From Thermoplasmata archaeon (GTDB taxonomy: Archaea > Thermoplasmatota > Thermoplasmata > Sysuiplasmatales > Sysuiplasmataceae): DNA of 64,000 bases. The notes under the pieces were generated by a model. It ran no database searches and was not told the DNA's origin. It was given only the letters and a program-made list of their open reading frames with translations. Location: assembly GCA_021817225.1 (NCBI GenBank), contig JAKAVR010000001.1, positions 72,002 to 136,001 of the forward strand, given 5' to 3'. Below, in pieces: positions 9,596-54,329 of this stretch. Numbering within the stretch: position 1 is the first letter of the stretch; every line of letters begins with the position of its first letter. The translations under genes were made by a program, and so were the position numbers.

Positions 9596-10215
9596 TCACC
9601 TCACTAAGATCATTCTTTCCATTTAATCTATGGAATTCAGAATTGGAATCGTCCAAATGTTCATCCAAAACCTTTGTCAAAGATGCAAAACTTACTGAGA
9701 ACGACCACCTAATCATGCTACTGGCAGAGATTTCTAAATTCTCGCAAGATCACATTGCGAATCGAATGTCTATTCCCTTGGGCAATAAAATGCCAATAGA
9801 CGATAACCGTCTGCCTTTCCACCAAGCAAAGTAAGACAGTATGACCATTTAAAACTAATTCTTCGTCTCTGTTCCCAGACAAGTTCAATTCATTAGTGAC
9901 TTGTGTTTCAGATTCTTGCAAGCGATAGAATGGCAAAAGGTAAGTGAATTCCGCAGAGGTTCAATGTGGCATGTGGCCTAATTAACGCAAATGACATTAC
10001 AATTGCAAAGACATCACTTAAACCGCTTATTCCCCTTCTCATACCGGATTTCGCGAACAAGTAGACTGAAATGGCTTAGAAAGTCACGCACAGTCTAGCA
10101 TTGCTTTCACTCTTTGATATGAATTTGAACCGTCATCAAGATGGATTTCCTCTAAAGAAAAGCAACAATTAAGTTGAACACTCACTCAGAAGTCAAATGC
10201 AAAAGCGTGGCATCA

Positions 10216-10647
10216 TCAGATATTTCTTATGCCATGATTAGATGCTGGACCTATGACTTTCACAACTCTTGCTAACTCCCTCTCAAACTGCTCTTTGATT
10301 TCGCATTCCCACAAAGTGACCACCCTCCATCCCATTGCTTTTAACTGCCCATTTACTCTCTTGTCCCTATTCTTGTTGTTCCCAAGTTTCTCAGCCCAGA
10401 AATCATGCCTTGTGGTAGGAATAGTCGATAACTTGCAACCATGCGAGTGCCAAAAGCAGCCGTTAATGAATAATGCCACCCTTTTCTTAGGGAAGACAAT
10501 GTCTGGGTGGCCAGGCAACGAAGAACGTAATCTGTACCTGAAGCCTAATGCATGCAGAGCCTTTCTCACTTCCAATTCCAACGATGTGTTACTGGACCTT
10601 ATTCTTGACATATTCCAGCTTCGACGCTCTTTGCTTATCTTGTCCAC
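10216..10647 (-). CDS. vsr: very-short-patch repair endonuclease
   Basis: 143 aa with 'DIVFPKKRVALFINGCFWHSHGC' matching the Vsr core, immediately downstream of the C5-methyltransferase. Confidence 0.8.
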   Translation of the reverse strand: MDKISKERRSWNMSRIRSSNTSLELEVRKALHALGFRYRLRSSLPGHPDIVFPKKRVALFINGCFWHSHGCKLSTIPTTRHDFWAEKLGNNKNRDKRVNGQLKAMGWRVVTLWECEIKEQFERELARVVKVIGPASNHGIRNI

Positions 10648-10805
10648 GGCTTCAGTCTCCCCATTTTTCTATAAACTGCTATGAGATGAGCGGGTCAATA
10701 TAATTTCTGGATTAATTGTGGCCTTTACCGGATTTGAGTAGTGTCCTGGGGGCAGCGGTAGTTCAAATTAACCGAAACCAAGTGGGCAGGCAAAGACATG
10801 TGCCA

Positions 10806-12413
10806 CTAGGCATCCGCGATTCTCGATATTGGTTTTTGGTGATTTTCGGGGTCTTGACTACACGCTTTCGAAAGTATTCCGTACACAATCCCGGCTATCT
10901 GGTACGCGAGATAAGGCGGAACTGCATTTCCTATCTGTATGTACTGCTCCGTTCTGCTACCTTCGAAGTAATAATTATCTGGAAATGTCTGTATGCGAGC
11001 TGCCTCTCTGACTGTAAGGCTCCGACATTGCCTTGGATCGGGATGAATGTAGTAGTGGCCATCTTTGCTTATGTGAGACATTATTGTAGTCGCTGGTCTT
11101 GTACTCACTTGCACCCGGAACCTGTCAGTAAAACTGTTCTTGACTTTAGCTGACTTCTTCGCACTTTTATGTTTTGGTTTCAATTCCTTCGGAAAATCTC
11201 TCAGAGTTGGGCTTTTCTTGTTCACCTTGGCGTAACAGGCTGCATAAAAGTACCTGTAGAGATCCCTACGCATGTGAGATCGCGCAGTGTGATTGCACAC
11301 ACCTTGCATCCGGAGATCGCAATACCATTTATTGAGGTAGGCCGTAGGATATTGACCCTTAATGAAGTCACATCCGGTTCCTGCAGCGGGCGGCCGTATC
11401 ATTCTCAACTGGTTTACCATGTAATCCCTCAATTTGTTCCCACATGGTCTCTGGATTATTGACCCCATCCAAGAGCGATCTTCTTGATTCCTCAACAATT
11501 TCAGCCATTTTGCATCAGAATCCGCGCTCTGTGAATACATACTTCTCAACTTTGGTAATCCTCCAATAACCTTTGATATTGGAATTTCATCCTGTAAGGC
11601 TAGACCCCCCGGATTCTGGACATTCAGATCATTCCTTATTCCCAGCAGAATGACTCTGTGTCTCGATTGGGGGATACCGTGCAATTCGGATTTCACCACC
11701 GCAGTGTAGGGAGAATTGTCGTCAATTAGTCCCTCGCTGGTCAATGAGTATATGGAATATGTATGATGATAGCTTTCAAGCGTATCACGTCCCTCTCTTT
11801 CAAGTGCTTCAGCAGGATTGCGCAGATCGCCAAGCATTCTGCCGAATATTCCCTGTTCCTTGAAAGTTGCCGAGAGCAATCCCTTTACATTTTCCATAAT
11901 GAAAACAGCAGGTTTGTGATCTGACAATATCTGAAGGTATTCCACGTACAGTTTCTGTCTGACATCTTTTTCAGGATCATATTTGGGGTTGCCAGCGTTC
12001 CTAGATCTACCTGCGAGAGAATACGCCTGACAAGGTGGTCCGCCGATCAAAACACTATTGTCTGTCCGCTGCAATCGGTCGTTGATTTTACTGCGTATGT
12101 CCATTATCGTTTTTCGGTCGGCTCCTATTGAGGCTTTCAAGCTCCTTTCAGCTGCGGCTTTGGCTGCGACTGGATAAGATGCATAGAGGGCATCAATCCC
12201 GATTTCTCTACGTAAGTATTGATAATATTCTTCAGGTATATGGGGCCAAGAAAGGTGAAAAAACGATCTCAGCTTGAGAGTTCTGAAAGCATAATCTTCC
12301 TTCTCTATCGATAATACAATTTCAAATTTCCTATCTCCCTGTGCATCAGCAAACGACGAAAATCCCTCGCCGAGCCCGCCGGGGCCAGCAAAAAGGTCGA
12401 CAACTTTGAACAT
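10806..12413 (-). CDS. dcm: DNA (cytosine-5)-methyltransferase
   Basis: 535 aa. Motif I 'VVDLFAGPGGLGEGF', motif IV 'GGPPCQAYSLAGR', motif VI 'ENVKGL', motif X 'QIGNAVPPYLAYQI'. Confidence 0.85.
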   Translation of the reverse strand: MFKVVDLFAGPGGLGEGFSSFADAQGDRKFEIVLSIEKEDYAFRTLKLRSFFHLSWPHIPEEYYQYLRREIGIDALYASYPVAAKAAAERSLKASIGADRKTIMDIRSKINDRLQRTDNSVLIGGPPCQAYSLAGRSRNAGNPKYDPEKDVRQKLYVEYLQILSDHKPAVFIMENVKGLLSATFKEQGIFGRMLGDLRNPAEALEREGRDTLESYHHTYSIYSLTSEGLIDDNSPYTAVVKSELHGIPQSRHRVILLGIRNDLNVQNPGGLALQDEIPISKVIGGLPKLRSMYSQSADSDAKWLKLLRNQEDRSWMGSIIQRPCGNKLRDYMVNQLRMIRPPAAGTGCDFIKGQYPTAYLNKWYCDLRMQGVCNHTARSHMRRDLYRYFYAACYAKVNKKSPTLRDFPKELKPKHKSAKKSAKVKNSFTDRFRVQVSTRPATTIMSHISKDGHYYIHPDPRQCRSLTVREAARIQTFPDNYYFEGSRTEQYIQIGNAVPPYLAYQIAGIVYGILSKACSQDPENHQKPISRIADA

Positions 12414-13428: not shown

Positions 13429-14429
13429 ACAAAATGGACACGCCGAATGATCATGCGCAGTTCAGGCAAAAACTCAATGAATTCCGATTGTGGGCTTCAG
13501 GGTGCGGCCGATTCTCATTCTCGACAGTTGCCCGCCAGGTGAGACGCCTTCAATATATATCAAAACATATGGACCTCCTAGAATTCAATCTGTCTGATAT
13601 TTACACCTACATTGAAGCAGAACTCAAGAAAGGAAAGAAGAAGAAGTCTGTAAACAACGACATGAAGGATGTCCAGGCATGGCTCGATTTCCTTGGCAAG
13701 CATATAGACCTTCCACGGTTCAAGGGAGAACCAGCTCCAGAACCCTGGATGCCCACGGATGACCAGCTCTCACAGATAATCCGTTACTGCCGGAAGAATT
13801 CAAACAAGGGCTTGGCAAAACGCAACGAACTGATGTTTGAAATACTTGCATTCGGGGGTCTGCGTATTGGCGAGATGCTTGGGCTGAATATCGAGGATGT
13901 TACTCAAAGAGGCATCTATGTACGTTCAGAGAAAGGTGAACGGGATCGGACCGTAGGCCTTCCGGATGGCCTAATCATCTCCCTCGAGGAATACATTCAT
14001 GCATACCGCTACAACACGGATCCCAAAGCCCTGTTTACAAGCAGTCGCGGGAGAATAGAATACAATTACACAAGGAACCTGATCAAGAGAATTGGCATCG
14101 CGCTGGGTATGCCTCTTCTTCACGCACATGCACTAAGACATTATTGTGCCACAAGCCTGTTGAAAGGCTTCTTTGGCTCTGAACCGCTCGACATCAGGGA
14201 GGTTCAAATCCATCTGGGACATGCCCGCATCGAGACGACAGCAATTTATACTCATATTTCGCAAAAGGAGGTGGCGGAGCATGTGCGACTCCGCTACAAT
14301 TCCTTCTTTCCAGACAGTCACGGGCAAGGAGAAACGGAAATCGTAATTGCAGAAGAGGTGACAGGTTCGTATCCCAGTGAATCCGAACCAGAACTATGTG
14401 CGGCTGCCGGGATTCGAACCCGAGTTTGA
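13425..14429 (+). CDS. int: tyrosine recombinase / integrase
   Basis: 334 aa with catalytic-region motifs 'ARHYCATSLL', 'HLGHARIETTAIYTHIS' (R..HxxR..Y). The last ~31 nt overlap the 3' half of tRNA-Gly. Confidence 0.85.
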   Translation: MNKMDTPNDHAQFRQKLNEFRLWASGCGRFSFSTVARQVRRLQYISKHMDLLEFNLSDIYTYIEAELKKGKKKKSVNNDMKDVQAWLDFLGKHIDLPRFKGEPAPEPWMPTDDQLSQIIRYCRKNSNKGLAKRNELMFEILAFGGLRIGEMLGLNIEDVTQRGIYVRSEKGERDRTVGLPDGLIISLEEYIHAYRYNTDPKALFTSSRGRIEYNYTRNLIKRIGIALGMPLLHAHALRHYCATSLLKGFFGSEPLDIREVQIHLGHARIETTAIYTHISQKEVAEHVRLRYNSFFPDSHGQGETEIVIAEEVTGSYPSESEPELCAAAGIRTRV

Positions 14430-14469
14430 AGCTTGGGAAGCTTCAGTCCTACCACTAGACTACAGCCGC
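14399..14469 (-). tRNA. tRNA-Gly(CCC)
   Basis: The minus-strand read GCGGCTGTAGTCTAGTGGTAGGACTGAAGCTTCCCAAGCTTCAAACTCGGGTTCGAATCCCGGCAGCCGCA folds as a canonical cloverleaf. 7-bp acceptor, D-arm GTCT/GGAC, anticodon loop TTCCCAA, T-loop TTCGAAT. Confidence 0.85.
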
Positions 14470-39515: not shown

Positions 39516-40510
39516 TTGTAGATATCCCTCTTCATGTCGCACTTCCAGATAAGCTGCGCCGACTGTGGCTGTTTCCCCAAAGAGTGCAGGAAAAGCGCTT
39601 CAACTGAAACTTGTCCCAACTGCAGGCTTGCCGTCTGCTGTTGCTGGCCCGTTACCTGAATCATTCCGGTTAACCTTTTGGTGCAAGGCTCATAAGGCCC
39701 TCAACAGGATAGCACACCGCCACACATGGCGGCGGTGCCGAATGGTGTGCCCGGCATGAATGGAGGTCAGAAGGTGAAAGTCCTTTACGGGGTTGCAGCA
39801 GCGACCGTTAGCCGAACGACAAGGGTGTCAGCCGCGAGGCTGAATCCGAAGGAAGTCGCAGGCAAAGTCCCGGCCCGACGAACAGAAACCGTATATGAGG
39901 CGGAGAACAGACAGGGTGAGTTCGCCATCCAGAACAAAACACAATCGCCGCAAGTGTCTGTTTGCGTATATGCGGCGGGTATATGGGATGAAGGCATCCG
40001 TTCTTACCCGGGGAGATCTGGCATCATGCGGCAGCATGTGAAACGGACCGGAGTTTCGTCCGTACAAGCATGTTGCGGTAAACAGTGCAGCAATGCACTG
40101 CCGAGATGCCAGAAGTCAGCAGAAGCCATAGTACATGCGGGAGCATGGAAGGGCAGAAGGTCAGTAATGGAGTGACAACGTTGAGTTCGAGTTCAGGGCA
40201 GAGAAGACAGAAAACCTCGAATGAGGGCCGCCATGCGGGAGGAACGGTGAAACCGCTCGAACTGCATGGGGCGTCCAGTCCTGAGACGGCACGAGACGCA
40301 GTGTCAACCAGAGCAGACAGCATCTGCTTCAAAACTGACTAACCGCTGTATGCCGGACGGTACGTACAGTGGTGTGGGAGGTCGGGAGTTAATCACTCCC
40401 TCCTGCCCGATATATTCGGCCAATAACATCTGTTTTCAACAGACCGACCTGTTACTCTGCATTTCCACTTCCGGGCAATAATATATATCGGCGCAACGAT
40501 CCGAATTGAT

Positions 40511-41259: not shown

Positions 41260-41826
41260 TTGTCGATGGACAGGCTGGCATTGTATTCCCGGAACGCGCT
41301 CAGGCTCAAGGAATATGACAAGCTGCCCCCGCATATCACCAGGGTACAGTATCTCGATATGCTCGATGCAGTTGAAAGGAAACACTCAGCTGCCGGACAA
41401 TGGGCGAAGAAGGCGCGATATTACAGGGACAGGGACAAACTGCTCCTGCGCCTGATGCGGGAGGCTGGAGGCAGGATTGGCGACATACTCAACATCGCAC
41501 CGGTCGATTTCGATTTTGACAGGAAGATTCTCAACCTGAAGGTCAGGAAGAGGAGGGATGTCAACTCGATTCTGCTCGGGGACGGCATTCTCCTTGATGT
41601 GAGCAACTACCTCAGAAATTACAATCCAGGAGCCAAGCTCTGCGATTTCTCGAAGGTTCAAGGGCGGAAGATTGTGAGGCAATACGGCAGGCTGACGGGC
41701 ATCGACGTGCATCCACACATGTTCAGGCATGGTCTGGCAATACACCTGCCCGAGAACAACGTGCCGATACCGATAATCTCAGCGAGACTCGGCCACTCGA
41801 GCGTGTTGACGACGATAAGATACTAA
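41260..41826 (+). CDS. short tyrosine recombinase (catalytic domain only; possibly truncated)
   Basis: 188 aa. 'MFRHGLAIHL ... ARLGHSSVLTTIRY' is the R/H-x-x-R ... Y C-terminal box. Confidence 0.6.
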   Translation: MSMDRLALYSRNALRLKEYDKLPPHITRVQYLDMLDAVERKHSAAGQWAKKARYYRDRDKLLLRLMREAGGRIGDILNIAPVDFDFDRKILNLKVRKRRDVNSILLGDGILLDVSNYLRNYNPGAKLCDFSKVQGRKIVRQYGRLTGIDVHPHMFRHGLAIHLPENNVPIPIISARLGHSSVLTTIRY

Positions 41827-42744: not shown

Positions 42745-43869
42745 GTGGTCTATAACTCAACCAGGAGTGCCATTGCAGTCACTTATGTCGGCCTCGCTGG
42801 CATTGTACCCGGCCTGGCGCTCGGTCTCGTTGCAGGTGTTCTCGCGGACCGTTACAACAGGCGGCGGACGATGATTGTCTCCGATGTCTCAAGGGCGCTA
42901 ATAATGGCTTTCCTCGCAGGTTTCCTGTATCTCCGCGGATTCAATCTTCTGCTCATACTGGGTGTGTTTGTAATTGTGAACAGCTTCACAGCCATCTTCT
43001 TTCCTGCCAGCTCTGCTATGCTGCCGAAGCTAGTCCAGAAGAGCGAACTGACACAGGCCAACGGCTTTCTTCAGGGCACGACACAGGGGGCGCAGATGAT
43101 CGGGTCTGCCGCAGGTGGGGCGGCGATTGCCTTTGTTGGTGTTGTTCCAGGTCTGGCTGTCAACGCAATCACTTACGTAATCTCTGCGGTGCTGCTGCTC
43201 CAGATAGCCTCGACATTTGGCCGGACAGGTGGCGCCGATGTCAAGGGTGCGGCCCGCCCTCCATTTCGAACGGAAATTGTAGAGGGCCTTTCCTACATGA
43301 GGGCCAATCTGCCGATAATGGAAGTGACTCTTGGTTTCCTGCCGGGAAATCTCCTCTGGGTGATGGTCACTAATTTCACCGTTGTCTATGTCGCATCATA
43401 TTTTCCCGGTTCCCCGGCAGCCTACGGATATCTTGTTGCCGGACTTGGCGGCGGTTTTGCACTTGGCGCCTTCCTTGCCACAAGGCTGCACCTGAGCAGG
43501 CATTCTGGCATTGCAATGGCTTCCATGGTCGTGATGGAGGGAGCGGCTGCGCTTGGGCTGAGTGTTTCCCACTCATACGCTCTCTCCCTTGGGCTGTCCG
43601 CATCCCTTGGTGCGGAAGCAGGGGTAATCAACGCGGTCTATTATTCAACGATGCAGGCCATAGTTCCCGACAACGTCCTGAACCGCGTGCTGAGCGTGGA
43701 CCAGGTAGGCAGCTTTGCGGGCATACCTGCCGGTTTGCTCATTGGAGGTGTGCTGGCAGGCAAGTTCGGAATCGGTCTCGACTACGCTGTCGCAGGACTT
43801 GGACTGCTTGCCAATGGCGCTTTGATGCTTTCTCTCCGCGACCTCCGCTCCCTCCGCTACACCGGTTGA
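42745..43869 (+). CDS. MFS transporter
   Basis: 374 aa, ~12 TM, 'GVLADRYNRRRTM' MFS loop motif. Confidence 0.75.
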   Translation: MVYNSTRSAIAVTYVGLAGIVPGLALGLVAGVLADRYNRRRTMIVSDVSRALIMAFLAGFLYLRGFNLLLILGVFVIVNSFTAIFFPASSAMLPKLVQKSELTQANGFLQGTTQGAQMIGSAAGGAAIAFVGVVPGLAVNAITYVISAVLLLQIASTFGRTGGADVKGAARPPFRTEIVEGLSYMRANLPIMEVTLGFLPGNLLWVMVTNFTVVYVASYFPGSPAAYGYLVAGLGGGFALGAFLATRLHLSRHSGIAMASMVVMEGAAALGLSVSHSYALSLGLSASLGAEAGVINAVYYSTMQAIVPDNVLNRVLSVDQVGSFAGIPAGLLIGGVLAGKFGIGLDYAVAGLGLLANGALMLSLRDLRSLRYTG

Positions 43870-44750
43870 GGATCGGCTTCAAGCAGATTCGGATTGAGTC
43901 GGAAGCCATGCTCCAGGCAGGCTGCATTGAAGCGGCGCAGAGTACGAATCTGCATAAGCAACCGGCACAATTGCGGTCCGTGAACCAGCAGGACTCCGGT
44001 TCCCGGAAAGGGATTTCTGTGCGAAGAATAACGGAGTTGCCAGAACTTGAAAGTCTTCAGATCGAAGGCATATCCTTCTTCGATCCTTTCCTTAAGCAGT
44101 TTGCGCTGGAAACAATGCTTTCCGGCGGGGAAGTTCACGTCGCTCAATTTGGTGACGGCAATATAGGCGGAATGCTGCTCTACGACGATATTGAAAAGGC
44201 AGGCAGCATTTTCACAAGATCCGGGGAAACGCTCGAGGCGCTCTTCAAGCTCAAGGAAAAAATGGTATTTTTCTCCGAGCTTCAGCTTGAACTCAGAAAG
44301 GAGGACTATCTCATATACACCATAGACATGACCGGCTACTCCTTTTCCCACCGCTTCAATCATGAAGTCAGCGTCGCAGGCGAGGATGACCTGGCTGAAA
44401 TTCTCGGTCTGATGACTTCTTCATACTCCAGGATCAACACACGCTGGATCAAGATTGCAATTGCTGCCGGTGAAAAGTGTTTCATTGTCCGGACCCATCA
44501 TGGAATAGAGGGAGTCGCATGGCTGTCGGTGGTTGGAGGGAAGGGCAGACTCCACTCGCTGGTTGTCTCTCCCCAGTTCAGGAAGCAGGGAGTCGGGACT
44601 GACCTGCTGTTTGCGAGGCTGCTGTGGCTCAGGACCATAGGCGGAAGGTTTGCATTTTCCGAGATCGCAGAATCAAACAGGCACTCCCGGGCGATTGCCC
44701 TCAGCGGCGGGATGCGAGAGTCCGGAGTCATGTATCAGTACCGCAGCTGA
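43866..44750 (+). CDS. GNAT-family acetyltransferase domain protein
   Basis: C-terminal 'LHSLVVSPQFRKQGVGTDLL' motif A. 4-nt overlap with the MFS gene. Confidence 0.45.
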   Translation: MRIGFKQIRIESEAMLQAGCIEAAQSTNLHKQPAQLRSVNQQDSGSRKGISVRRITELPELESLQIEGISFFDPFLKQFALETMLSGGEVHVAQFGDGNIGGMLLYDDIEKAGSIFTRSGETLEALFKLKEKMVFFSELQLELRKEDYLIYTIDMTGYSFSHRFNHEVSVAGEDDLAEILGLMTSSYSRINTRWIKIAIAAGEKCFIVRTHHGIEGVAWLSVVGGKGRLHSLVVSPQFRKQGVGTDLLFARLLWLRTIGGRFAFSEIAESNRHSRAIALSGGMRESGVMYQYRS

Positions 44751-44789: not shown

Positions 44790-45857
44790 TCAGCTTCTCG
44801 GGGCACCGCACACCGGACATCTGAGGGCCGTCGAGTCAATGAGCGTACCGCAAAACTGGCATTTTACCTTAACCACTTCCTTGACAACAATCTGCTGCAC
44901 CGGCGGCTGCTCCGGGGTGAAGCTTATCGGCGGCGGTCCCGGAGGCTGCTGCGGGGGTGCACCCTGCTGCGGCGGCACGGGCGCATAACCGTACCCAACT
45001 TTCCCCCCGCCAGGGTGCTGAGGCAGCTTTGCCCTCCTTCTTCTGGAGAGCGAACGCAAGACAAGCGCAGTAATAACCAGCATGACAATGATCACCAGGA
45101 CGGCAATGACCAGTATGTCGTTCAGGTTCAGGGATGGAGGCTGGGATGGTGCCTGGCCTGGCGTCAGGCTGTAGGTTGTGTGTGTCACATACAGAATCTC
45201 TGTGTAGGTGAATCCGTCACCGAAACTGTTAGCGTCGTGCTCGGTGTAAACGTAGCCGACAATATAACCGGTCGATGTGTCAAAATATGCCTTCCAGTTG
45301 TATGTCGCTGTGAAGCTTCCGTAGACGTCATTTCTCAGGTAGGATCCGTTCCCCTCGGAGAATATCGTCTTCACATACGATCCGGTGGAGGGGAGTTTGT
45401 AGCTGTAGCCTGTTGAGACAACTTTCATCTGAGTGTTCAGCAGGTAGAACTGACTTCCCTGGGCGAGAGAGTTGTTCATGTAAAACCAGACATATGGATT
45501 TGAGTAACCAGTCTGGCTGTCTGTCCCGTTCACGTATCTGTATGTCTCGTAAGAGAAGGTGAAATTGCCTGCTGAGCTTCCGCTGCTCGAGCTGCCTGTG
45601 TTGTTGCTGAATGTCCAGAAATACTGATAGAACGAGGATGCAACATTTCCCGGGAGAAGGGATGTTATGTGCTCCGTGCCGTTGACGTACTGCTGCTCTG
45701 TATACCCCGTGTAGTTGCCCTGTCCGCCGTTGACCGTTATCGTCTCGTAGTAGTTGAAGTAGTCACCAGACTTCGGCGTGTAGTGTGCCGTCGCAGCCGA
45801 CGGCATGAGCAGCACTGAAACAAGCGCTAATGCAATCAGACCCTTCCACAAAATCAT
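44790..45857 (-). CDS. type-I membrane protein: N-glycosylated Y/S/T-rich ectodomain, TM, PQ-rich linker, C-terminal Zn ribbon
   Basis: Signal/TM 'LIALALVSVLLMPSAATA', many N-x-S/T sequons, TM 'ILVIAVLVIIVMLVITALVL', and a C-terminal 'CQFCGTLIDSTALRCPVCG'. Confidence 0.5.
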   Translation of the reverse strand: MILWKGLIALALVSVLLMPSAATAHYTPKSGDYFNYYETITVNGGQGNYTGYTEQQYVNGTEHITSLLPGNVASSFYQYFWTFSNNTGSSSSGSSAGNFTFSYETYRYVNGTDSQTGYSNPYVWFYMNNSLAQGSQFYLLNTQMKVVSTGYSYKLPSTGSYVKTIFSEGNGSYLRNDVYGSFTATYNWKAYFDTSTGYIVGYVYTEHDANSFGDGFTYTEILYVTHTTYSLTPGQAPSQPPSLNLNDILVIAVLVIIVMLVITALVLRSLSRRRRAKLPQHPGGGKVGYGYAPVPPQQGAPPQQPPGPPPISFTPEQPPVQQIVVKEVVKVKCQFCGTLIDSTALRCPVCGAPRS

Positions 45858-47386
45858 CCGTAAAACCCTCCAAGGGCATGTATGTGTCCGGGGTGGGCCC
45901 CGCCGATGCCGCTGAAGGTCGAGTAATACGAGGAATGCACTATGATCATGGGCATGAACAGAGGCACGAACGGGCGTGAGGCCGCATATGTGAACTGGAC
46001 GGGCGTCTCCGCGATGCGTGCGGTGCTGTCCAGGTCCCTGACAAGCTCATTCTTTATTCCGTGAATCATCCTGACTGCAAGCGCAATCAGTTCCGACTGC
46101 TCAAGTCCCCCGGCCTTTGAACCTATGATTGAATATGTCTTCTCAAGCAGGTTGAGCGTCTCGTTCGCCTCCATGACAGGGATGGAAGTGAGTATCGCTG
46201 CCGCAACGAGCGGGTATTCCAGATAGTGCTTGATCCCTTCCGTTATTATCGCAAGCTTGCTCTGAAAACCATCGGCCGGTAGATCGGATGCTGCCAGGTA
46301 TGCCGACGAAAGCTCCGTATCCTCGGACACTTCAAAGCCCCATGAATTGAAAAGGGTTTTCGTCGACATGAATTTCCTCTTTATATCATCCGGGGGGCTG
46401 TTGATTATCGACATCAGGGCCGCGGATTCGTATGAATTTGTGAGCTGTCTGAAATCACGGAACGAGTCAAGCGGGAATGTGCCGTCATACCTCTTCCCGA
46501 AGAAGAGAATGGAACTGACACCCGCAGAGATCTCCTTGGGAACATCAAGGTGATGCCTGACCTGGTGGTCAAGGTCGAACAGCTCAGGGATTGTGCTGTT
46601 GAGGTCTGCGCCTGAACATGCGAGCACCTCGGCAGCGGTCATCCTGTTTTCCATGTTGTGAGATATCTTCTCAATCCCCTGAAACGCCTGAAAGAACCTG
46701 TTGTCAAGGTCCCCCGGGTTCCCCTGAATCTTGGCGAGGCCGATTGAAGTGCTCCATCTTTCCGATATATCGGCCTCTCCCAGTATCTGGGCAAGATAAC
46801 GGAAATGGTTCACCCCCCTGACGGCTATTCCGTCAAGCTCGCCGAGAGTCTGGTTCAGCTGCTGCACGTATGCGGTGAAGTCGGTATCCGATACCCTGTA
46901 CATCCTTATTCCAAGGTCTTTCATCGAAAGGAGACCGGTCTCGGTCAGCGCCACATATCCATCCGAGTAGGAGACGAGCTTGTCCAGCAGCGTCTTCTTG
47001 CCTATGAAAGAGGCAAGCGTTGACTCCTTGCCTGATATGTCTGCACCAAGCTTACCAAGCGTTTCCCTCTCCTGCTGTGCCTTCTGCATTTCAGCCTGTT
47101 CCTGCTCCCTGGTGTGCGCGATTCGGAAGAATATGGACTGGACTTTCTTGAAATCAGGCTCGAATTCCCTTGACTCCTGCTCCTCGGCCGTTTTCTGCTG
47201 GGCAATATCTCTTGTGAGCTGCTCCATCTGTCCAACATCGGCCGTCAGCTTGCTGTAGTCGTCTTTTGTGAGGGTCTGTATGTAGCCTGCTGTCTTCAAT
47301 GATTCAATGTCCGCGGGTGCCACATTGACAGTTATCGTTCTAGCTGCAATCTGGTTGAAAAAATAATACACTTCAGAGCACTTCAT
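45854..47386 (-). CDS. hypothetical protein (510 aa)
   Basis: Clean ORF with a 4-nt overlap at both ends, so it sits in an operon. No motif assignable. Confidence 0.5.
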   Translation of the reverse strand: MKCSEVYYFFNQIAARTITVNVAPADIESLKTAGYIQTLTKDDYSKLTADVGQMEQLTRDIAQQKTAEEQESREFEPDFKKVQSIFFRIAHTREQEQAEMQKAQQERETLGKLGADISGKESTLASFIGKKTLLDKLVSYSDGYVALTETGLLSMKDLGIRMYRVSDTDFTAYVQQLNQTLGELDGIAVRGVNHFRYLAQILGEADISERWSTSIGLAKIQGNPGDLDNRFFQAFQGIEKISHNMENRMTAAEVLACSGADLNSTIPELFDLDHQVRHHLDVPKEISAGVSSILFFGKRYDGTFPLDSFRDFRQLTNSYESAALMSIINSPPDDIKRKFMSTKTLFNSWGFEVSEDTELSSAYLAASDLPADGFQSKLAIITEGIKHYLEYPLVAAAILTSIPVMEANETLNLLEKTYSIIGSKAGGLEQSELIALAVRMIHGIKNELVRDLDSTARIAETPVQFTYAASRPFVPLFMPMIIVHSSYYSTFSGIGGAHPGHIHALGGFYG

Positions 47387-48558
47387 TCATTTTCCCAGTC
47401 AACGATCGGAAACGACTTATAAAGACTTTCTTCGTTTAATTTATTCCTGATATTCAATATTAGGGAGTTGCTGCTTTCAGACACATCTATGAATGGATCG
47501 CTCCTGAGGGCTTCGGCCACAAGAGTTCCAAACTGTATCTTCCTGTCGTTTCCGCCACCGAAACGTGCCGCCCGCTCCCGCTCTATCTGCTCGTATGCAA
47601 ACATGAATTCATACAGGGAACGGTGCAGCTGCTCCTCTATCTTGTCCGCGACTCTTTCCCTTTCCACATTCCTTTCTTCTATTCCTTCAAGGTCAACAAA
47701 GTAGACTGTGCCGTCGGGGGATATAACCGCATCCTTGTCAAGCCAGACGTCGTTGAAGTCGAGCCCTTCATATCTCCCGTCGTCCCGCATGGACATTGTT
47801 CTTGGAAACAGTGTGAGGAGTGCTATGCAGCTTCTGATGAAGTTGCATTCGAACAGGTATGCTTTGTCGTTGCTGTCTATGTGGAACATGTCGAATATTC
47901 TCTTCATGTTCCGGCCAATGACGTTCCCAGCATGGAAATAGACTCTTATGTTGGAGGGGACAAGACGCAGCTCCTGGACAATCCTTCCGGTAAACCTCCT
48001 GTACCAGTATATCTTTTTCAGCTGCTTCTCCAGCTCCTCCGGAAGAAATGCTATGCTGACTACAGGCGCGATTCTGAAACCGTTTATCGATGTGATGTTC
48101 GCCATCTCGGAGACCCTCATCGCAGTGGCCGCATGTTCAAGGCCCTGTCCTCCGTAAGGTGAGCCTCTGAGCCACAACTCTCCTGTTATGAAACGGGCGG
48201 GACCCCCGGCCGAGCCTCTGAGTATCTTTTCCCTGAGGTTCATGTCCCGGACCAGCGACGAAACATACTCGCCATTGAGAAGTTGCATGGAGAACGGGTC
48301 GGTTGTGGAACCTATTCCTTTCACAGAGAGATGGAATTCGGTTCCATCGATGGTTGCTACGGGTTCAGGAGAGATGGCTCCCCTGTTGTCGTCCTCCACA
48401 AATTCCCTTTTCCCTTCACTCTCAGCCCTCATCAGTGGAACGACCGACTCGGGCAGGTAGACTGAATTGAACCCCTGAACGGATGAAAAATGCCTGCTTG
48501 TCGAAACGCCATCGGCCGCATACGAGTACAGGTCAAGCCGTGTCCCGAGCATCTCCAT
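47383..48558 (-). CDS. hypothetical protein (391 aa); weak kinase/ATP-grasp-like motifs
   Basis: 'VYFHAGNVIG ... YLFECNF ... VYFVDLEGIE' may correspond to nucleotide-binding catalytic motifs. Unverified. Confidence 0.45.
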   Translation of the reverse strand: MEMLGTRLDLYSYAADGVSTSRHFSSVQGFNSVYLPESVVPLMRAESEGKREFVEDDNRGAISPEPVATIDGTEFHLSVKGIGSTTDPFSMQLLNGEYVSSLVRDMNLREKILRGSAGGPARFITGELWLRGSPYGGQGLEHAATAMRVSEMANITSINGFRIAPVVSIAFLPEELEKQLKKIYWYRRFTGRIVQELRLVPSNIRVYFHAGNVIGRNMKRIFDMFHIDSNDKAYLFECNFIRSCIALLTLFPRTMSMRDDGRYEGLDFNDVWLDKDAVISPDGTVYFVDLEGIEERNVERERVADKIEEQLHRSLYEFMFAYEQIERERAARFGGGNDRKIQFGTLVAEALRSDPFIDVSESSNSLILNIRNKLNEESLYKSFPIVDWENE

Positions 48559-48743
48559 TGCATGTCTCCGCGAATTTCATACAAATAGAGGACATGGGGC
48601 TATTAACTCTTACACAAATTGCGATGTCCCAGAAAGGCTCTCTGTTGCTTCCGACTGACTTTCAGCGTCTGCCGGTCGAAATAGGTCCGGTGCGTTAGTG
48701 CTTCACCCTTGAAATCTTCTGTTTCGAGTGCACATTCGGCCCC

Positions 48744-49526
48744 TCAATCCCTCGTGAACCTGAGTTTCACCAGGAATTTCAGGTTGTTCCATCCGTCTTT
48801 CCAGGTCCTGAGCTTCTTCTCTCCCTGCCTGAGGCTGAACTCCACTGGAATCTCCTTGAAGCGGACGTGCTTCGCCGCCTTGATCTTTATTTCCTCCGAG
48901 AACGGAAATCCGTTGCTTCTCACATTCAGCTTTTCGAAGACGGACTTCTTCAGTATCCACATACCGCTCTGCGTGTCGCTCAACCTTACACCGAACAGAA
49001 CTCTCGTTGTCACATTCAGTATCCAGTTGCCGAACCGGTGAGTCCTGTTCATCGCTCCTTCCCTCATCTGGCCGAATCTGTTCGCTGTAATGAAGTCAAG
49101 CTGTTCCCTGTTGAATATGCCAAGCAGAAATGGTATAGCCTCGGGCGGGTATGATGCGTCGGCATCCATTGTTATAATTGTCTCCCCCGCGGCAGCTCCA
49201 AAACCGGTCTTGTATGCCCTGCCATAGCCTCTCTCCGGCTCCCTTACGACCCTGCATCCCTTCTGCTGCGCTATCTCTGTGGTCCTGTCCCTGGAGTTGG
49301 TATCCACTATGATGATTTCGTAGTCTCTTGTCACCGAGTCCAGATTTGCTCTGATCCTGTCCACTACGGGGCCTATGGACTTTTCTTCGTTTATCGTGGG
49401 TATGATTACCGATATCACGGTGCTACAACGAGGATTGAACGTTCCTCCCCTAATAATCATTGTCGTTATATTCGCAGCCCTGCGCATGCTTGGGCAGGCC
49501 GATCTTCCGGGTCCAGGTGACGCCAT
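48744..49526 (-). CDS. family-2 glycosyltransferase (Dpm1-like)
   Basis: 'ISVIIPTINEEKSIGPVV ... YEIIIVDTNSRDRT'. Confidence 0.8.
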   Translation of the reverse strand: MASPGPGRSACPSMRRAANITTMIIRGGTFNPRCSTVISVIIPTINEEKSIGPVVDRIRANLDSVTRDYEIIIVDTNSRDRTTEIAQQKGCRVVREPERGYGRAYKTGFGAAAGETIITMDADASYPPEAIPFLLGIFNREQLDFITANRFGQMREGAMNRTHRFGNWILNVTTRVLFGVRLSDTQSGMWILKKSVFEKLNVRSNGFPFSEEIKIKAAKHVRFKEIPVEFSLRQGEKKLRTWKDGWNNLKFLVKLRFTRD

Positions 49527-49573: not shown

Positions 49574-50359
49574 TCAGGTCTCGATCCTTCCTTCTCCGAA
49601 CAGTTTGTACGCCACATAACCCATGAGGGCCGCGAATACCCTGATCATGGAATACATTGTCATCTTCCTCTTGAAGAGCTCCAGCGGTCTGTAGCTTGAC
49701 CAGAGCCTGCCGTATTTCAATGTGAGCTGCTTTCTTCCGGCACCATTCCAGAAAGCCTGTTTTGCAAAGGAATAGAGGTTCTCCCTGGTCTTGTGGTAGA
49801 CAACAGCCTCCTCGTTGAACATGACCGGAAAGTGGCCGTCGACGGCCCTGATGTTCAGGTCGATATCCTCCGCCGTTATGAACCACCTGTCGAAGAATCC
49901 TATCCCGTCAACAACACTCCTGTGATACACGAGGTTGCAGGAAGGGTAAGTAACATCCATCCCTCGTCTGTACAGTTCGACTCTTTCCAGCCCGATATAC
50001 GGTCCCTGGCCTATGTAAACGGTCTTGCCTGCGACCACTCCAGGTGAATTCATTTTCTTCTGCACTTCGGGCAACCAGTTGCTGTCTGCAATGCAGTCTC
50101 CGTCTATGAAAGCAAAGGCATCACCCCTGGCCAGGTTGATGCCTATGTTACGACCTTCCCCCCTCTTGCAGCCCTGGACGACCAGATGTACGTAGTCATA
50201 CTTTCCCGCAAACTCCCTGACCGTGTCCGCTGTGCCGTCCTCACTGTCGGAATCTACAACAATGATCTCCTTGTCCACACCCTGCCTCACGAGGCTGTCT
50301 AGGAGGTCCCTTATGTTTTCCCCCTCGTTTCTCACTGTTATGATGACGCTGAACAGCAC
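49574..50359 (-). CDS. family-2 glycosyltransferase
   Basis: 'FSVIITVRNEGENIRDLLDSL ... IIVVDSDSEDGT'. Confidence 0.75.
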   Translation of the reverse strand: MLFSVIITVRNEGENIRDLLDSLVRQGVDKEIIVVDSDSEDGTADTVREFAGKYDYVHLVVQGCKRGEGRNIGINLARGDAFAFIDGDCIADSNWLPEVQKKMNSPGVVAGKTVYIGQGPYIGLERVELYRRGMDVTYPSCNLVYHRSVVDGIGFFDRWFITAEDIDLNIRAVDGHFPVMFNEEAVVYHKTRENLYSFAKQAFWNGAGRKQLTLKYGRLWSSYRPLELFKRKMTMYSMIRVFAALMGYVAYKLFGEGRIET

Positions 50360-50401: not shown

Positions 50402-50971
50402 TCATGCGGACCGGGGCGCGCTGCGCAGGTAATCGTCAACAGCCTGCAGTATGCCCTGCTTCCCAACAATTGCATACTTCAGGCCAGCCCTTCTTGCCAT
50501 CTCACCGTCAATGTCATCCCTGTCACCTATGACATATTCGTCGGAGGAGCCATGGTCCTTCCTTGCCTGGGCAATCAGTCCGCTGAGCGGCTTCCTGCAT
50601 CCGCAGCCGTCATCAGGTTTGTGCGGGCAGTAGTATATCCCGTCAATGTGGGCATCATGTCCAGCAAGCTGCCTCTTCATCTCGTCATTCACCTCAGCCA
50701 TCTGGGTGACGTTGAAGTATTCCCTCCCTATGCCAGACTGGTTCGTCAGCACTATCACCGTGACACCACTTCTGTTCAGCCTGCTGATGGCTTCGCCTGC
50801 TCCTTTCATCAGCCTCACCTGCTCCCTGCTGCTGCAGTAGGGGCAGTCTTCGATTATCGTATTGTCCCTGTCCAGGTATACTGTCCTCTTTCCCATGTCT
50901 CCTGCTGTGATCGGAATCATCCCACATGCATGAATGTTTTCCAGGTGAAAACATTTTACAGCACCCCGCAA
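50402..50971 (-). CDS. HAD-family phosphatase (GmhB / histidinol-phosphatase type)
   Basis: 'VYLDRDNTIIED', 'CGCRKP' signature, 'GDRDDIDGEMA'. Confidence 0.7.
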   Translation of the reverse strand: MRGAVKCFHLENIHACGMIPITAGDMGKRTVYLDRDNTIIEDCPYCSSREQVRLMKGAGEAISRLNRSGVTVIVLTNQSGIGREYFNVTQMAEVNDEMKRQLAGHDAHIDGIYYCPHKPDDGCGCRKPLSGLIAQARKDHGSSDEYVIGDRDDIDGEMARRAGLKYAIVGKQGILQAVDDYLRSAPRSA

Positions 50972-51425: not shown

Positions 51426-54329
51426 TCAGCTGTTTTTCCCGGCCGCTGTCACCCTGCTCAGCTGGAGCCCGGCTGATCTCGCAAGCAGCAGAAGTGTCAT
51501 CTCGGGCGCCCGTCCCGTCGCCTGCTCTATCTGGAGCGCACACTCTTCACCGTCAGTGACAAGCACAGTGCCCTCATCCATTTCCCTGCCCGCCTCAACA
51601 AACACCTTCTTGCCTATCTCCATCGACAGATTGAAGGTCTCCTTTGCAAAACCGTAGCTTCCGCCTGCGCCGCAGCATCCTGCGTGTATCTCCTCAATCT
51701 CTGCACCGGGAATCATGTTCAGCAGCTCAACGACCTTCCTGTCCGTGCCGAGCGCCCTTGAATGGCAGGAGGGATGATACAGTATTCTTCTCGCTACGGG
51801 CTGGAAATCAAGGCCCGTCTCCTCCTCCCTTATGACATCGAGCAGGAATTCGTGAACGTCCACTACCCTCCTTGCCACTGTCCTGGATCGTTCATCGTCG
51901 ACAACGCTCAGGTAGTCGTTCCGGAGGGCCATCACAGCCGATGGCGAGGAGCAGACAACGGGCGTCCCCCTTACGGCGAACGGATAGAGGTAGCTTACAT
52001 TCTCAAGCACGTATTTGCCTGCCTCCCTGAGCATGCCAAGATATATCAGCGGCAGGCCGGTGAAGTGCTGTTTGGGGAAGAGTGTCGCGTAGCCCGCCTC
52101 CTCCAGAATGCCTACAACCGCCCTGCCAATCCTCGAGTCGAAGTAATTTGCATACATGTCGGAGAAGTAGGCAACCTCCCCCTTCTTTCCTGGCCTGGAG
52201 ACATGTTTCTCGAACCACTCGCTGAATGGCTCGAGGTCAAACTCAGGGATCTTCCTCCGCCTGTCGATTCCGAATGCGTGCTCAAGAGCAGATCTCGCAT
52301 TCCTTGATTTTATCAGCCTGTTTGAGAGCCTGGCCACGCTTGAGGCAATCATCGTGTACAGCTCGTAATCCGAGAAGAACCTGGAAGTTCTCCCGACTGT
52401 TCCAGCGCCGGTACGTTTGACATGCTGTGCCCTCGCCTCAATCATGATCTTAGGCGTATTGACATGGCTCGGGCACTCGGCCGCACACATCTTGCATTCA
52501 ATGCAGTAATCGTAGATGGAACGTGCGTACTCGCCGCTGTACATCGCGATTGTGGGCACACCTCCCATGTTGCTCAGCAGCCTGACAAGGTTGTTCAGGC
52601 CCCGCGGAGAAGTGAGTTCACTGCCTGTTGTCTTGTACACCGGGCACTGCGTCTCAATGAATGAAAGCGTTCTGCACTCTCCGCATCCGTGGCATGCCTC
52701 TATTTCATCTATCATTGACAGGGGTCGCTCGTCGAATCTGGAGATTACATCAGGAGTGTTCCAGTTGAGCCTGGGCCTGAATGGCCTTCTCTCGTGCTCG
52801 GGGCCAAACCTGTATGGCTGCTCTTCCTCGGTGTCTGGCTGTCTCTGCCCGCCAAGTATGTTCAGTGGATCGAAACTCTTTTTCAGAAGCTCGAAAGCAG
52901 TTGTGAGTCTTTCATCCATGGCATAACGGACGTAGGGCAGAAGCTGCAGTCCTATTCCATTCTCCGATGATATCCTTCCCCCCTCCGCCTTCAGTGCGGT
53001 TGCGAGCTCGGTCATGAATGATGCGAGCTTTTCTCTGTCGTCGGATCTCCTGAGGTTGAGGAACGGCCTGATGTACATTATGCCCTCCGCCGCATGTCCG
53101 AACACGAGCGACCTGAGGGCATAGCGCCTCGAAATCTCTTCCACCGCAATCATCAGGTCGGGTATTTTTGCAGGCGGGACCTCCACTCCCTCTGCCGCGA
53201 CAACGTACCTTCCGGAGGGAGACGGCCTCTGAAGCCCGTGTATCGCATCCTTGAGGCTCTGCACGACTTCTTCCGGGCTACCCCCGACATCAACGATCTC
53301 CGCTGCTCCCCTGCCTGCAAGATCTTCTTTCGAAAGACCGTCTGATTTGAATATTGCCAGAAGCCAGTGCATCACGTTCCGTGGAAAGGTGAACCCCTGG
53401 TGGACGGACCTGAACGCGGATGCAAGTGTCTGGTCAATGTATTCCAGGCAGACCGCATCCTCCCCGGCAGTGGCTGCAAATCTGAATGCATCCTTCGCAG
53501 TCCCGAATCCTATCAGCACGGAGCGAGCCGTGTCAAGCCTGTCAACTATCCTCATTGTTGCAGAGGTGAATATGGTGAGTGAACCCTCTGAACCGATCAT
53601 AAGGTCAACGAAGTCGATGCTGTCCTCTTTGAGCGAAGAAATCCTGTAGCCGCACGTTCCACGGAATGGCGCAGTGGTCTCCTTCAGCAGCGGCAGCAAC
53701 TTTGACTTCAGAATATCAATATCCGGATGCTGTATCTCGCCCGCTCCCCTCTTCAGCTCTAGTCTCCTGCCTTCCGCGTTTACAGTTTCTATTGCAACAA
53801 CAATGTCGTGCATTCTGCCGAAACCAGTCGAAAGAAAACCGCCCGCATCATTCGATATGCATCCACCCACTGTGCACTTCCAGCCCTTGACAGGGAAAAT
53901 GGGAACCATCTTTCCGTATTTCTTAAGTTCAAGATTCAGTGCCTCTATGGTTATCCCTGCACTTGCTGTGACGAGACCGTTTGCTATATCCAGCGCGAGG
54001 ATGGAATTCATGTTGCGGCTGAAATCAAGAACAATGCCGTGGCCAAGGGCTGCATCCGTCACGCTTGTTCCGGCACCCCTCGGAGTCACTGGTATTGCGT
54101 ATCTGCGGCAGAACTGGAGAGTCTCGACGACATCGTCCGCCCCCTCTGGTGCAATGACGGCCAGCGGCTCAATCTCGAAGTTTCCCGCATTTGTCGAATA
54201 GGAGCTTTTCTCTATCGCCGAATCGGCGATCTTGCCGCTTATCCTTCCTTCGAGTTCGGCTCTGTGCCTCCTCCAGACCTCCTCGAATCCGCCAGATGTG
54301 AGAAGTGTCATTATTACAGCTGGAAACAA
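51426..54329 (-). CDS. FAD-linked oxidase fused to Fe-S (CCG-domain) oxidoreductase (GlcD-GlcF-like)
   Basis: 967 aa. N-terminal FAD-binding PCMH-type region and C-terminal Cys clusters 'CHGCGEC ... CIECKMCAAECP'. Confidence 0.75.
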   Translation of the reverse strand: MFPAVIMTLLTSGGFEEVWRRHRAELEGRISGKIADSAIEKSSYSTNAGNFEIEPLAVIAPEGADDVVETLQFCRRYAIPVTPRGAGTSVTDAALGHGIVLDFSRNMNSILALDIANGLVTASAGITIEALNLELKKYGKMVPIFPVKGWKCTVGGCISNDAGGFLSTGFGRMHDIVVAIETVNAEGRRLELKRGAGEIQHPDIDILKSKLLPLLKETTAPFRGTCGYRISSLKEDSIDFVDLMIGSEGSLTIFTSATMRIVDRLDTARSVLIGFGTAKDAFRFAATAGEDAVCLEYIDQTLASAFRSVHQGFTFPRNVMHWLLAIFKSDGLSKEDLAGRGAAEIVDVGGSPEEVVQSLKDAIHGLQRPSPSGRYVVAAEGVEVPPAKIPDLMIAVEEISRRYALRSLVFGHAAEGIMYIRPFLNLRRSDDREKLASFMTELATALKAEGGRISSENGIGLQLLPYVRYAMDERLTTAFELLKKSFDPLNILGGQRQPDTEEEQPYRFGPEHERRPFRPRLNWNTPDVISRFDERPLSMIDEIEACHGCGECRTLSFIETQCPVYKTTGSELTSPRGLNNLVRLLSNMGGVPTIAMYSGEYARSIYDYCIECKMCAAECPSHVNTPKIMIEARAQHVKRTGAGTVGRTSRFFSDYELYTMIASSVARLSNRLIKSRNARSALEHAFGIDRRRKIPEFDLEPFSEWFEKHVSRPGKKGEVAYFSDMYANYFDSRIGRAVVGILEEAGYATLFPKQHFTGLPLIYLGMLREAGKYVLENVSYLYPFAVRGTPVVCSSPSAVMALRNDYLSVVDDERSRTVARRVVDVHEFLLDVIREEETGLDFQPVARRILYHPSCHSRALGTDRKVVELLNMIPGAEIEEIHAGCCGAGGSYGFAKETFNLSMEIGKKVFVEAGREMDEGTVLVTDGEECALQIEQATGRAPEMTLLLLARSAGLQLSRVTAAGKNS

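Follow-up and report, generated by a model that had tools for sequence, protein, structure and literature searches.

In a 64,000-nt stretch of DNA from a Thermoplasmata archaeon (contig JAKAVR010000001.1 of assembly GCA_021817225.1; the whole stretch is referred to here as the window), three overlapping open reading frames (ORFs) raise the question of what their products do and whether they form a complete system. The three proteins are termed A (391 aa), B (510 aa) and C (355 aa). A sequence-only reading had taken the trio for an operon of unknowns that adjoins glycosylation genes, and from the architecture of the last protein had suggested trans-membrane signalling or scaffolding, a role that is reasonable but unproven. 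The trio is however not the complete unit. A fourth gene, G, which encodes a GNAT acetyltransferase and is convergent with C, is equally conserved, and in a sister branch it is fused to the ectodomain and trans-membrane (TM) helix of C. A, B and C with the convergent G are one self-contained four-gene module, whose context varies between genomes. Three of the four proteins, A, B and C with respect to its ectodomain, have no described family.

All three ORFs are present as they had been described, on the minus strand throughout (Table 1), and the 4-nt overlaps of A with B and of B with C were both read from the sequence as ATGA stop/start couplings. The A/B junction is ...GAA AAT GAA TGA / ATG AAG TGC, and the B/C junction is ...TAC GGA TGA / ATG ATT TTG. 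A, B and C are real genes and not chance ORFs, because homologues number 1319 for A, 764 for B and 243 for the C ectodomain. Searches of Pfam, NCBIfam, PADLOC, PHROGs and PDB sequences placed none of the three in a described family, to which the sequence-only reading had likewise been unable to assign them, the generic zinc ribbon of C aside; neither A nor the C ectodomain has a match in any of these collections. A DUF1598 match that appeared in the family scans of A, B and C was dismissed as chance.

The 80 best loci were searched with the four window proteins, and gene order was judged where the DNA was sufficient. In all such loci the order is A, B, C and the convergent GNAT gene, and the same order is found in all main-family metagenome loci. 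The A-B-C linkage, the conservation of which had been proposed as a check on the operon, is kept in every testable genome, and C orthologues directly follow B in each testable locus. Orthologues across the loci have E-values of 1e-70 to 1e-120 for C and of 1e-45 to 1e-70 for the GNAT protein; since these are far tighter than generic GNAT similarity, G is a dedicated orthologue. Clustering of all flanking ORFs revealed no other conserved neighbour in more than 12 of the 80 loci, and apparent clusters of neighbour genes near the module were rejected as shadow ORFs. With no other recurring neighbour the module is therefore self-contained, in differing genomic contexts. Its neighbours include housekeeping genes (Trm1, RNase HII, ribosomal proteins). 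In two Bathyarchaeia genomes, one or two large AAA-lid/AAPxQ/VWA (Mg-chelatase-like) genes lie upstream (loci L001, 1-931, and L003, 1-4756), and these are not conserved across the wider loci.

A pattern scan with one genome per species found A encoded in 245 species genomes, nearly all of them metagenome-assembled genomes (MAGs) that carry a Thermoplasmata or Bathyarchaeia label and come from soil, peat, bog and acid sites. The peat and soil sites SPRUCE, Stordalen and Microflora Danica were sources of the MAGs. The window's proteins are identical on a contig of GCA_027314305.1, and among named genomes a Thermoplasmata MAG comes closest, at 94% identity. The module is apparently single-copy per genome. 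Between archaeal classes (Thermoplasmata vs Bathyarchaeia) A is about 57% identical, and the Bathyarchaeia copies form a tight clade (mean identity 76%) nested among the more diverse Thermoplasmata copies (58%), with cross-phylum pairs that reach up to 84%. This pattern suggests inter-phylum transfer or some mis-binning. Three MAGs labelled Candidatus Acidoferrum, ‘bacterium’ and Nitrososphaerales also carry module copies (loci L045, L080 and L041). The nearest relatives of their A proteins are from Bathyarchaeia or Thermoplasmata, at 65-84% identity, and these copies are probably mis-binned contigs rather than true occurrences. No module copies are present in the plasmid or phage collections searched, and a literature search found no account of a system with this composition.

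A further tie between the four proteins comes from the sister branch, which was reached via the contigs of distant A relatives and by a metagenome scan with a sister-branch A profile. When 1.84 billion representative proteins were searched in full by HMMER for matches to the A profile, only 139 clusters were returned, a set that includes full-length A relatives at 17-33% identity. In 24 of 24 sister loci with upstream DNA, a single protein of 500-600 aa is encoded directly before the A-like gene. It is composed of a signal, a C-type ectodomain, a TM helix and a G-type two-domain GNAT, and it is followed by the A-like and B-like genes; the stop of the fused ORF and the start of the A-like gene often overlap. 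One example, from locus L089, matches the C profile at E 6.5e-44, and the GNAT match of such a protein is at E 4.7e-37; fused homologues score 45-56 bits with Acetyltransf_1. The signal and TM pattern is the same as in C. Because the ectodomain-TM unit and the GNAT are here one protein, they act together, and the fusion ties all four module parts to one another. The zinc ribbon of C is absent exactly where the GNAT is fused. Thus, to judge from the two arrangements, the ribbon of the split form appears to stand in the position of the covalent link of the fused form.

The fused form is present in other archaea and probably in some bacteria: one cluster of this type is labelled Deltaproteobacteria by its source, and another adjoins archaeal ribosomal genes. 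No other fusion partners of the C ectodomain were found, as a search with the ectodomain only gave orthologues of the same architecture (the 243 homologues). The most distant A-like genes, P0350 (L090, 6126-9300) and P0362 (L095, 6001-7362, from a Parvarchaeota-type DPANN archaeon), are without GNAT, B-like or C-like partners, and that in L090 is flanked by unrelated genes of 281 and 314 aa. As these genes lack the module partners, the A fold may be used in other contexts too.

The topology that had been described for C, i.e., signal, ectodomain, one TM helix, a P/Q-rich linker and a CxxC..CxxC ribbon, is borne out by prediction, and C is a predicted type-I single-pass membrane protein. A hydrophobic signal spans aa 1-24, with likely cleavage at ATA|HY. 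Tyrosine makes up 13% of the ectodomain, Thr 13%, Ser 12.5% and Gly 11%. The ectodomain had been called full of N-x-S/T sequons. There are seven, each kept in 18-47 of 70 homologues, but this number is not significantly above expectation from composition (shuffle mean 4.2, P about 0.10). Directly after the TM helix comes RSLSRRRR, an Arg-rich positive-inside signal, then the P/Q-rich linker and CQFC...CPVC. The CxxC-x11-CxxC spacing is conserved across the 70 homologues. The window's C matches Zn_Ribbon_1 at E 3e-4 with 20.8 bits, below the Pfam cut-off of 25 bits, and PF13240/PF13248 are precomputed on many C orthologues. With its two CxxC knuckles and the match to a hidden Markov model (HMM), the C terminus has the sequence marks of a zinc ribbon.

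G is, by its sequence, the sole module protein that belongs to a known superfamily. Its true start is likely GTG 43980, which gives 256 aa; on near-identical contigs it is called as 256 or 211 aa. It scores 27.4 bits with Acetyltransf_1 (cut-off 20.7), and the acetyl-CoA motif RKQGVG is present, with a G-x-G that is at least 90% conserved. The single G sequence has no PDB match, and a profile was needed; the profile vs PDB sequences gave RimI (1e-11), the tandem-GNAT VipF (6wqb, 9e-11), and then Naa30 and archaeal Ard1/SSO0209. The identity of 6WQB as VipF, a tandem GNAT, is from PMC10936415. It should be noted that G is not a RimI orthologue (TIGR01575, 26.5 bits vs a cut-off of 86.4), and its match to the IucB-type Acetyltransf_8 is at E 0.013 only. 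The N-terminal domain of G has no match in the library or PDB searches. An aminoglycoside-resistance pair of APH and AAC type was considered for A and G and rejected, as it leaves B, C and the fusion unexplained.

The enzyme family to which A belongs had not been described before, and A is probably ATP-dependent. None of its 1319 homologues (E ≤ 1e-3, down to 1e-259) carries a Pfam domain, and a scan of 44 close homologues and 35 distant relatives at E ≤ 10 gave no consistent weak family. The AlphaFold2 (AF2) model has a pLDDT of 86.9 and a pTM of 0.89. A Foldseek check had been proposed for A and B; it gave weak matches for A and nothing significant for B. The A matches in the PDB have TM-scores of 0.2-0.43, E-values of 1e-3 to 1e-2 and a probability of up to 0.97. 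The best are the NIS synthetases AcsD (E 1.2e-3), IucC and DesD (TMq 0.43), with DfoC (5o7o) also listed, and, on the kinase side, ROP5, COQ8A, Rv3197 and receptor kinase domains; the BFVD viral structure library returned protein kinases alone. The faint kinase or ATP-grasp-like character noticed earlier in A agrees with these sole fold matches from the two libraries, weak as they are. Profile searches assign A to none of the families: no similarity was found to kinase-family profiles (Pkinase, APH, RIO, ABC1, Kdo and others) even with E-values of up to 10 allowed, no IucA_IucC or FhuF HMM matches A, which at 391 aa also differs from the three-domain NIS architecture of about 600 aa, and there is neither an ATP-grasp HMM match nor an ATP-grasp protein among the top 50 PDB fold matches. 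The giant repeat proteins P0343 and P0351 and a beta-propeller protein (probably P0378), which match the A profile, were rejected as spurious. Because the propeller protein contaminated alignment A3, the PDB propeller matches for A are meaningless.

Invariance in A was judged from a close-family alignment (A1) and a sister-branch alignment (A5). Residues invariant in both branches are N58-R59, K80-G81-x-G83, G136, P165, R187, Q195, R198, P201-S202, R205, D274-K275-D276, D282-G283 and D289. Of the motifs on which the sequence-only reading had drawn, VDLEG is strongly conserved and its D289 is invariant family-wide, but H209 and N239 are invariant only in the close family. The order of the invariants along the strands and helices of the model would fit a kinase-like nucleotide site. 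Conservation of R59, K80, G81 and G83 in the close family is complete or no lower than 90%, and it extends to distant relatives; the segment with these residues lies on model strands 49-57, 60-70 and 73-80 and is a proposed nucleotide-binding hairpin, and K80 may be the kinase beta-3 lysine. D-K-D, D-G and D289 have a putative catalytic role. A loop at aa 122-139, TGELWLRGSPYGGQG, is strictly conserved and modelled at low confidence.

B is all-alpha in its AF2 model (pLDDT 74.6). A long coiled-coil hairpin interrupts the small N-terminal part, which resembles a winged helix; a body of helical repeats comes next, and then a tail predicted to be disordered. None of its 764 homologues has a Pfam domain. 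In the PDB, Foldseek gave nothing significant for B, with designed alpha/alpha toroids at TMt 0.45-0.5; sequence searches gave only sub-threshold matches to the MCM6 winged helix and Rio2_N, and scans of the B family (44 members, E ≤ 10) and of distant B-like proteins gave no consistent weak family. No confident homology of A or B to enzymes with unrelated roles, which, just like a lack of linkage elsewhere, would have spoken against the trio, was found. A split lanthipeptide-synthetase-like kinase and LanC toroid was rejected, with no LanC/LanCL among the B fold matches and no Cys-rich core, as was a terpene-synthase-like B (FPPS match at E 2.1 only, probability 0.04). A tail-anchor TM helix at the B C-terminus was rejected too, as a hand calculation on one 19-residue window in the tail of one orthologue gave a Kyte-Doolittle mean of about 0.8, which does not reach the threshold normally applied.

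No other feature of B is as well conserved in the superfamily as the tail, although pLDDT is below 50 over aa 444-510. Every one of 120 database homologues (120/120) has Gly as its last residue, and HPxHxH is found inside the final 20 aa in 119 of these 120. All complete B-like proteins of the fused-type loci (17/17) end in aromatic/M/V-Gly; HPVHAHYMYG and HPLHVHYVPWFG are examples of distant tails. The length after HPxHxH (4-11 residues) and the Gly content vary. The conserved but disordered tail of B and the A loop TGELWLRGSPYGGQG suggest, on the models, that the two might fold upon mutual binding.

Table 1. Positions in the window of the module genes, their notable segments and the flanking features
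Feature	Position	Strand	Description
Gene A	47383..48558	-	391 aa ORF
A aa 56-84	48307..48393	-	DDNRG...SVKGIGS; proposed nucleotide-binding hairpin and invariant Lys (R59, K80, G81, G83)
A aa 270-292	47683..47751	-	DVWLDKDAV...DGTVYFVDLEG; proposed catalytic/metal-binding segment (D274-K275-D276, D282-G283, D289, E291)
Gene B	45854..47386	-	510 aa ORF
B tail, aa 470-510	45857..45979	-	hydrophobic/aromatic stretch, SSYYSTFSGIGG, HPGHIH, Gly-rich stretch, terminal FYG
Gene C	44790..45857	-	355 aa ORF, type-I single-pass membrane protein (predicted)
C ectodomain, aa 25-246	45120..45785	-	Y/T/S/G/N-rich, 7 sequons, no known family
C TM helix, aa 247-268	45054..45119	-	Kyte-Doolittle 19-residue window means up to 3.56
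C cytoplasmic zinc ribbon (predicted), aa 331-355	44793..44867	-	VKCQFCGTLIDSTALRCPVCGAPRS; CQFC-x11-CPVC
Gene G	43866..44750	+	two-domain GNAT, convergent with C; ORF opens at TTG 43866
TATA-like element TATTTGTA	48580..48587	-	centre about 25 nt upstream of the A ATG; read by eye
Second promoter candidate	48601-48606		TTAATA; read by eye
GT2 genes	48744-49526 and 49574-50359	-	upstream of A, gap 185 nt
GmhB-like HAD gene	50402-50971	-	upstream of A

A tentative answer to the opening question, to which somewhat less than an even chance is given, is that A, B, C and G are a module anchored in the membrane that uses ATP and acetyl-CoA to modify proteins or to signal. From the coupling of the four genes, the fusion and the topology predicted at the membrane, all set out above, the following mechanism may be inferred. 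The module would assemble a complex on the cytoplasmic side of the membrane. C, a type-I protein, would direct its conserved and probably N-glycosylated ectodomain outward, and its cytoplasmic zinc ribbon would dock G, taking the place of the covalent link of the fused form. A, with a kinase-like fold, an invariant Lys and the D-K-D...D-x-E acidic set, probably binds ATP-Mg. B may be the shared adaptor or substrate with its invariant disordered tail (S/T/Y-rich, HPxHxH, Gly-rich, aromatic-Gly), the tail being phosphorylated by A or activated by A at its C-terminal carboxylate. The acetylation by G would be of B or of A, with an amino group as the target. The ectodomain would in this way couple the cytoplasmic chemistry to something extracellular, and the module would then be a receptor-linked modification or signalling device rather than a glycosylation operon. 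The fullest version of this scheme, that of a new trans-membrane system of archaea and probably bacteria in which an ectodomain-coupled acetyltransferase acts, together with A, on the HPxHxH...aromatic-Gly tail of B, is possible but doubtful.

Several points weigh against such a modification or signalling module. For A there is no Foldseek match at E ≤ 1e-3 and no HMM that joins it to a kinase, ATP-grasp or NIS family, and its loop W-L-D-K-D (D274-K275-D276) is not the canonical HxDxxxxN. Small-molecule acetyltransferases (phosphinothricin, aminoglycoside) are also among the matches of G, and the RimI and N-terminal acetyltransferase (NAT) affinity of G leaves its substrate unfixed. The helical body of B has many invariant acidic and His residues, so that B, too, might be an enzyme and not a substrate. 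The B tail as substrate and the docking of G by the ribbon are drawn from conservation and the fusion only.

In the flanks of the module, an MFS_3 gene (EntS-type ‘transmembrane secretion effector’; 42745-43869, plus strand) ends 4 nt into the TTG-started G ORF and adjoins the module in this lineage alone. An MFS-family gene lies beside the module in six loci only, four of which are from the window's species or its 94%-identical relative. Farther out on the plus strand, 39828-40002 and 40079-40154 are group II intron D1-D4 fragments (Rfam RF02001, 137.7 bits; RF01998, 63.4 bits). No full reverse-transcriptase ORF is evident among the window ORFs, and the fragments may belong to a group II intron that is degraded or has no ORF. 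A 188-aa tyrosine-recombinase-type ORF (41260-41826, plus strand), the L004 counterpart of which carries Pfam Phage_integrase, may be the scar of a mobile element; the intron fragments are about 1.1 kb away from it and the module about 3 kb. On the other side, a 967-aa ORF (51426-54329, minus strand; called as 961 aa on a near-identical contig) encodes a large fused GlcD-type oxidoreductase, the 961-aa protein having FAD_binding_4, FAD-oxidase_C, Fer4 and CCG in one polypeptide. Elsewhere in the window, positions 8001-12000 have a G+C content of 0.42-0.45 vs about 0.52 in the remainder and may be a foreign island, and tRNA-Gly(CCC) (14398-14469, minus strand) is the sole tRNA gene in the 64 kb.

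The flanking genes bear on two other explanations. If the trio worked with the GT2 and GmhB-type genes, it would be a scaffold or sensor for glycosylation or envelope glycans, and indeed these genes are on the same strand with 185 nt between them and A, one GT2 protein is similar to AglJ or dolichyl-phosphate hexose transferases, with scores under the curated cut-offs, and C has its seven sequons. The genes had however been placed downstream of the trio; they are at higher coordinates and thus upstream (5′) of A. They are neighbours of the module only in loci L004-L006 and L009, i.e., in the window's species and the 94%-identical relative, and the adjacency is therefore incidental here. They are absent from at least 76 other loci, including the 68%-identical L010, with a weak GT2 match in L042. 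The module is not an Agl-type glycosylation cluster, since conserved linkage to glycosyltransferase genes is lacking. The element TATTTGTA is a candidate archaeal promoter that would give a near-leaderless transcript; it lies in the 185-nt gap and suggests that A-B-C need not share a transcript with the GT2 genes. The sequon count is not significantly higher than composition predicts. The glycosylation explanation is largely refuted by the lack of conserved linkage, and it retains the slightest chance of those considered. Hardly more probable is an anti-virus defence or other conflict system on a mobile cassette. The patchy distribution, variable context and signs of inter-phylum transfer would suit it, as would the integrase ORF and group II intron fragment 3-5 kb from the module. 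But A, B and C have no PADLOC or PHROGs match, the plasmid and phage collections yield no copy, the neighbours are housekeeping genes, the cross-phylum identity of A and its apparent single copy are unlike fast-evolving defence genes, and the module has no nuclease, protease or pore-forming effector.

Two chemical alternatives to the signalling module should be taken more seriously, though both are unlikely. In small-molecule or envelope biosynthesis, A would be an NIS- or ATP-grasp-type amide ligase, G would acylate an amine intermediate and B, by its toroid-like alpha-helical body, would be a third enzyme, while C anchors the pathway or binds the product outside, the product being siderophore-like, a lipid head group or an envelope component. 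The best Foldseek E-values of A are to NIS synthetases, with the GNAT-NIS fusion DfoC also listed; the invariant residues R59, K80, R187, R198, R205 and Q195 suit an anionic substrate, and the spacing D276-x12-D289-x-E291 may resemble that of ATP-grasp metal ligands. Invariant acidic and His residues in the helical body of B, small-molecule GNATs among the G matches and the EntS-type MFS_3 gene that adjoins G in the window point the same way. The size of A is however far below the 575-600 aa or so of the NIS enzymes, the top 50 fold matches hold no ATP-grasp protein, and no IucA_IucC/FhuF or ATP-grasp HMM is matched even at E 10. G is nearest to protein N-terminal acetyltransferases and not to the IucB type, no further biosynthetic or transport gene is conserved nearby, given the MFS gene in six loci only, and the role of a pathway anchor hardly accounts for a single-pass protein in which a conserved ectodomain of 220 aa is covalently joined to a GNAT in the cytoplasm. 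In the other alternative, somewhat less likely again, the chemistry would be at the end of B: A would activate its aromatic-Gly carboxylate as an acyl-phosphate or adenylate for ligation to an amine, be it on a lysine of a protein, on a lipid or on a small molecule, by possible analogy with ubiquitin-like modifiers, RimK, LysX and TTL, or the His-rich tail would be a metal sensor. A terminal Gly in 120/120 and 17/17 proteins despite the varying tail length points to selection at the very C-terminus, carboxylate-adenylating NIS synthetases are among the best A fold matches, and the three spaced His beside a free carboxylate could bind metal. Yet B, with 510 aa and a large conserved body, is unlike any known small modifier or precursor of a ribosomally synthesized and post-translationally modified peptide, and the conserved genes include no partner of E1, E2, protease or transporter type. 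The terminal Gly could also be a mere part of a flexible Gly-rich tail.

Whichever chemistry applies, the strong conservation, the strict linkage of the four genes and the Rosetta-stone fusion are the signs of a real molecular machine, one carried by Thermoplasmata and Bathyarchaeia, two uncultured groups of archaea that are abundant in soils, peat and bogs. It would be a compact, testable four-protein system for experimentalists. If the ectodomain is coupled to acetylation and to phosphorylation or ligation, the module would be a new type of trans-membrane signalling with a new branch of the kinase-like fold. Its action on the B tail, if true, would be a new signalling or protein-conjugation chemistry, and not a two-component, Ser/Thr-kinase or ubiquitin-like variant. 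A small-molecule producer would bring a new ligase family, ecologically interesting in acidic soils.

Comparison with known systems sets each part of the module in context. Members of the protein-kinase-like superfamily (UbiB/COQ8A, Rv3197, ROP5, ALK2-type) are the best, though weak, fold matches of A in the PDB and BFVD. The A succession of strand-strand-strand(Lys)-helix and then a helical lobe with an acidic loop and D-x-E/G may be mapped on the bilobal kinase plan. A differs in having no sequence or profile similarity at any threshold and TM-scores of 0.17-0.29, in a 60-residue insert with the invariant TGELWLRGSPYGGQG loop between the Lys strand and the putative alpha-C helix, and in an extra small beta-domain formed by its N- and C-termini. 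For A, no Foldseek matches have lower E-values or a higher TMq (0.37-0.43) than those to NIS synthetases (AcsD, IucC, DesD, AlcC, DfoC), and a pairing with GNAT acyltransferases is common to both, the PDB title of DfoC being acetyltransferase/NIS synthetase. Apart from the greater length and three-domain build of the NIS enzymes, the partners of A (B, C and an NAT-like GNAT) are unlike those in siderophore clusters, and no hydroxylase, decarboxylase or receptor gene is conserved near the module.

Ligation systems that use a C-terminal carboxylate are the ubiquitin-like modifiers with E1, RimK, LysX-LysW, TTL and the graspetide clusters with ATP-grasp and GNAT enzymes (microviridin). An invariant C-terminal Gly on the partner protein, an adjacent, probably ATP-dependent enzyme and a GNAT in the cluster recall the module. 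In contrast to these systems, B is a multidomain protein of 510 aa, A is neither an E1 nor a recognisable ATP-grasp enzyme, and a protease or transporter is lacking. For G, the RimI/Ard1/Naa30 enzymes and VipF are the best sequence matches of the profile, and the R-x-x-G-x-G motif is found in G too; as in VipF, an extra GNAT-size N-terminal domain precedes the catalytic GNAT (PMC10936415). G differs from RimI and the NAT enzymes in that it is dedicated to the module and that its sister-branch form is fused to the signal-ectodomain-TM unit. The covalent coupling of a sensor to an acetyltransferase has a counterpart in the mycobacterial cAMP-regulated Pat/KATmt, in which a ligand-binding domain is reportedly joined to a GNAT, such that a signal controls protein acetylation. 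No RimI/NAT enzyme is known to be fused to a signal-ectodomain-TM unit. The sensor-to-GNAT logic of Pat/KATmt is the same as that proposed for the module, although the sensor domains have no homology. In the module the putative sensor is extracellular, with a membrane span between it and the GNAT, and two further obligatory partners, A and B, take part.

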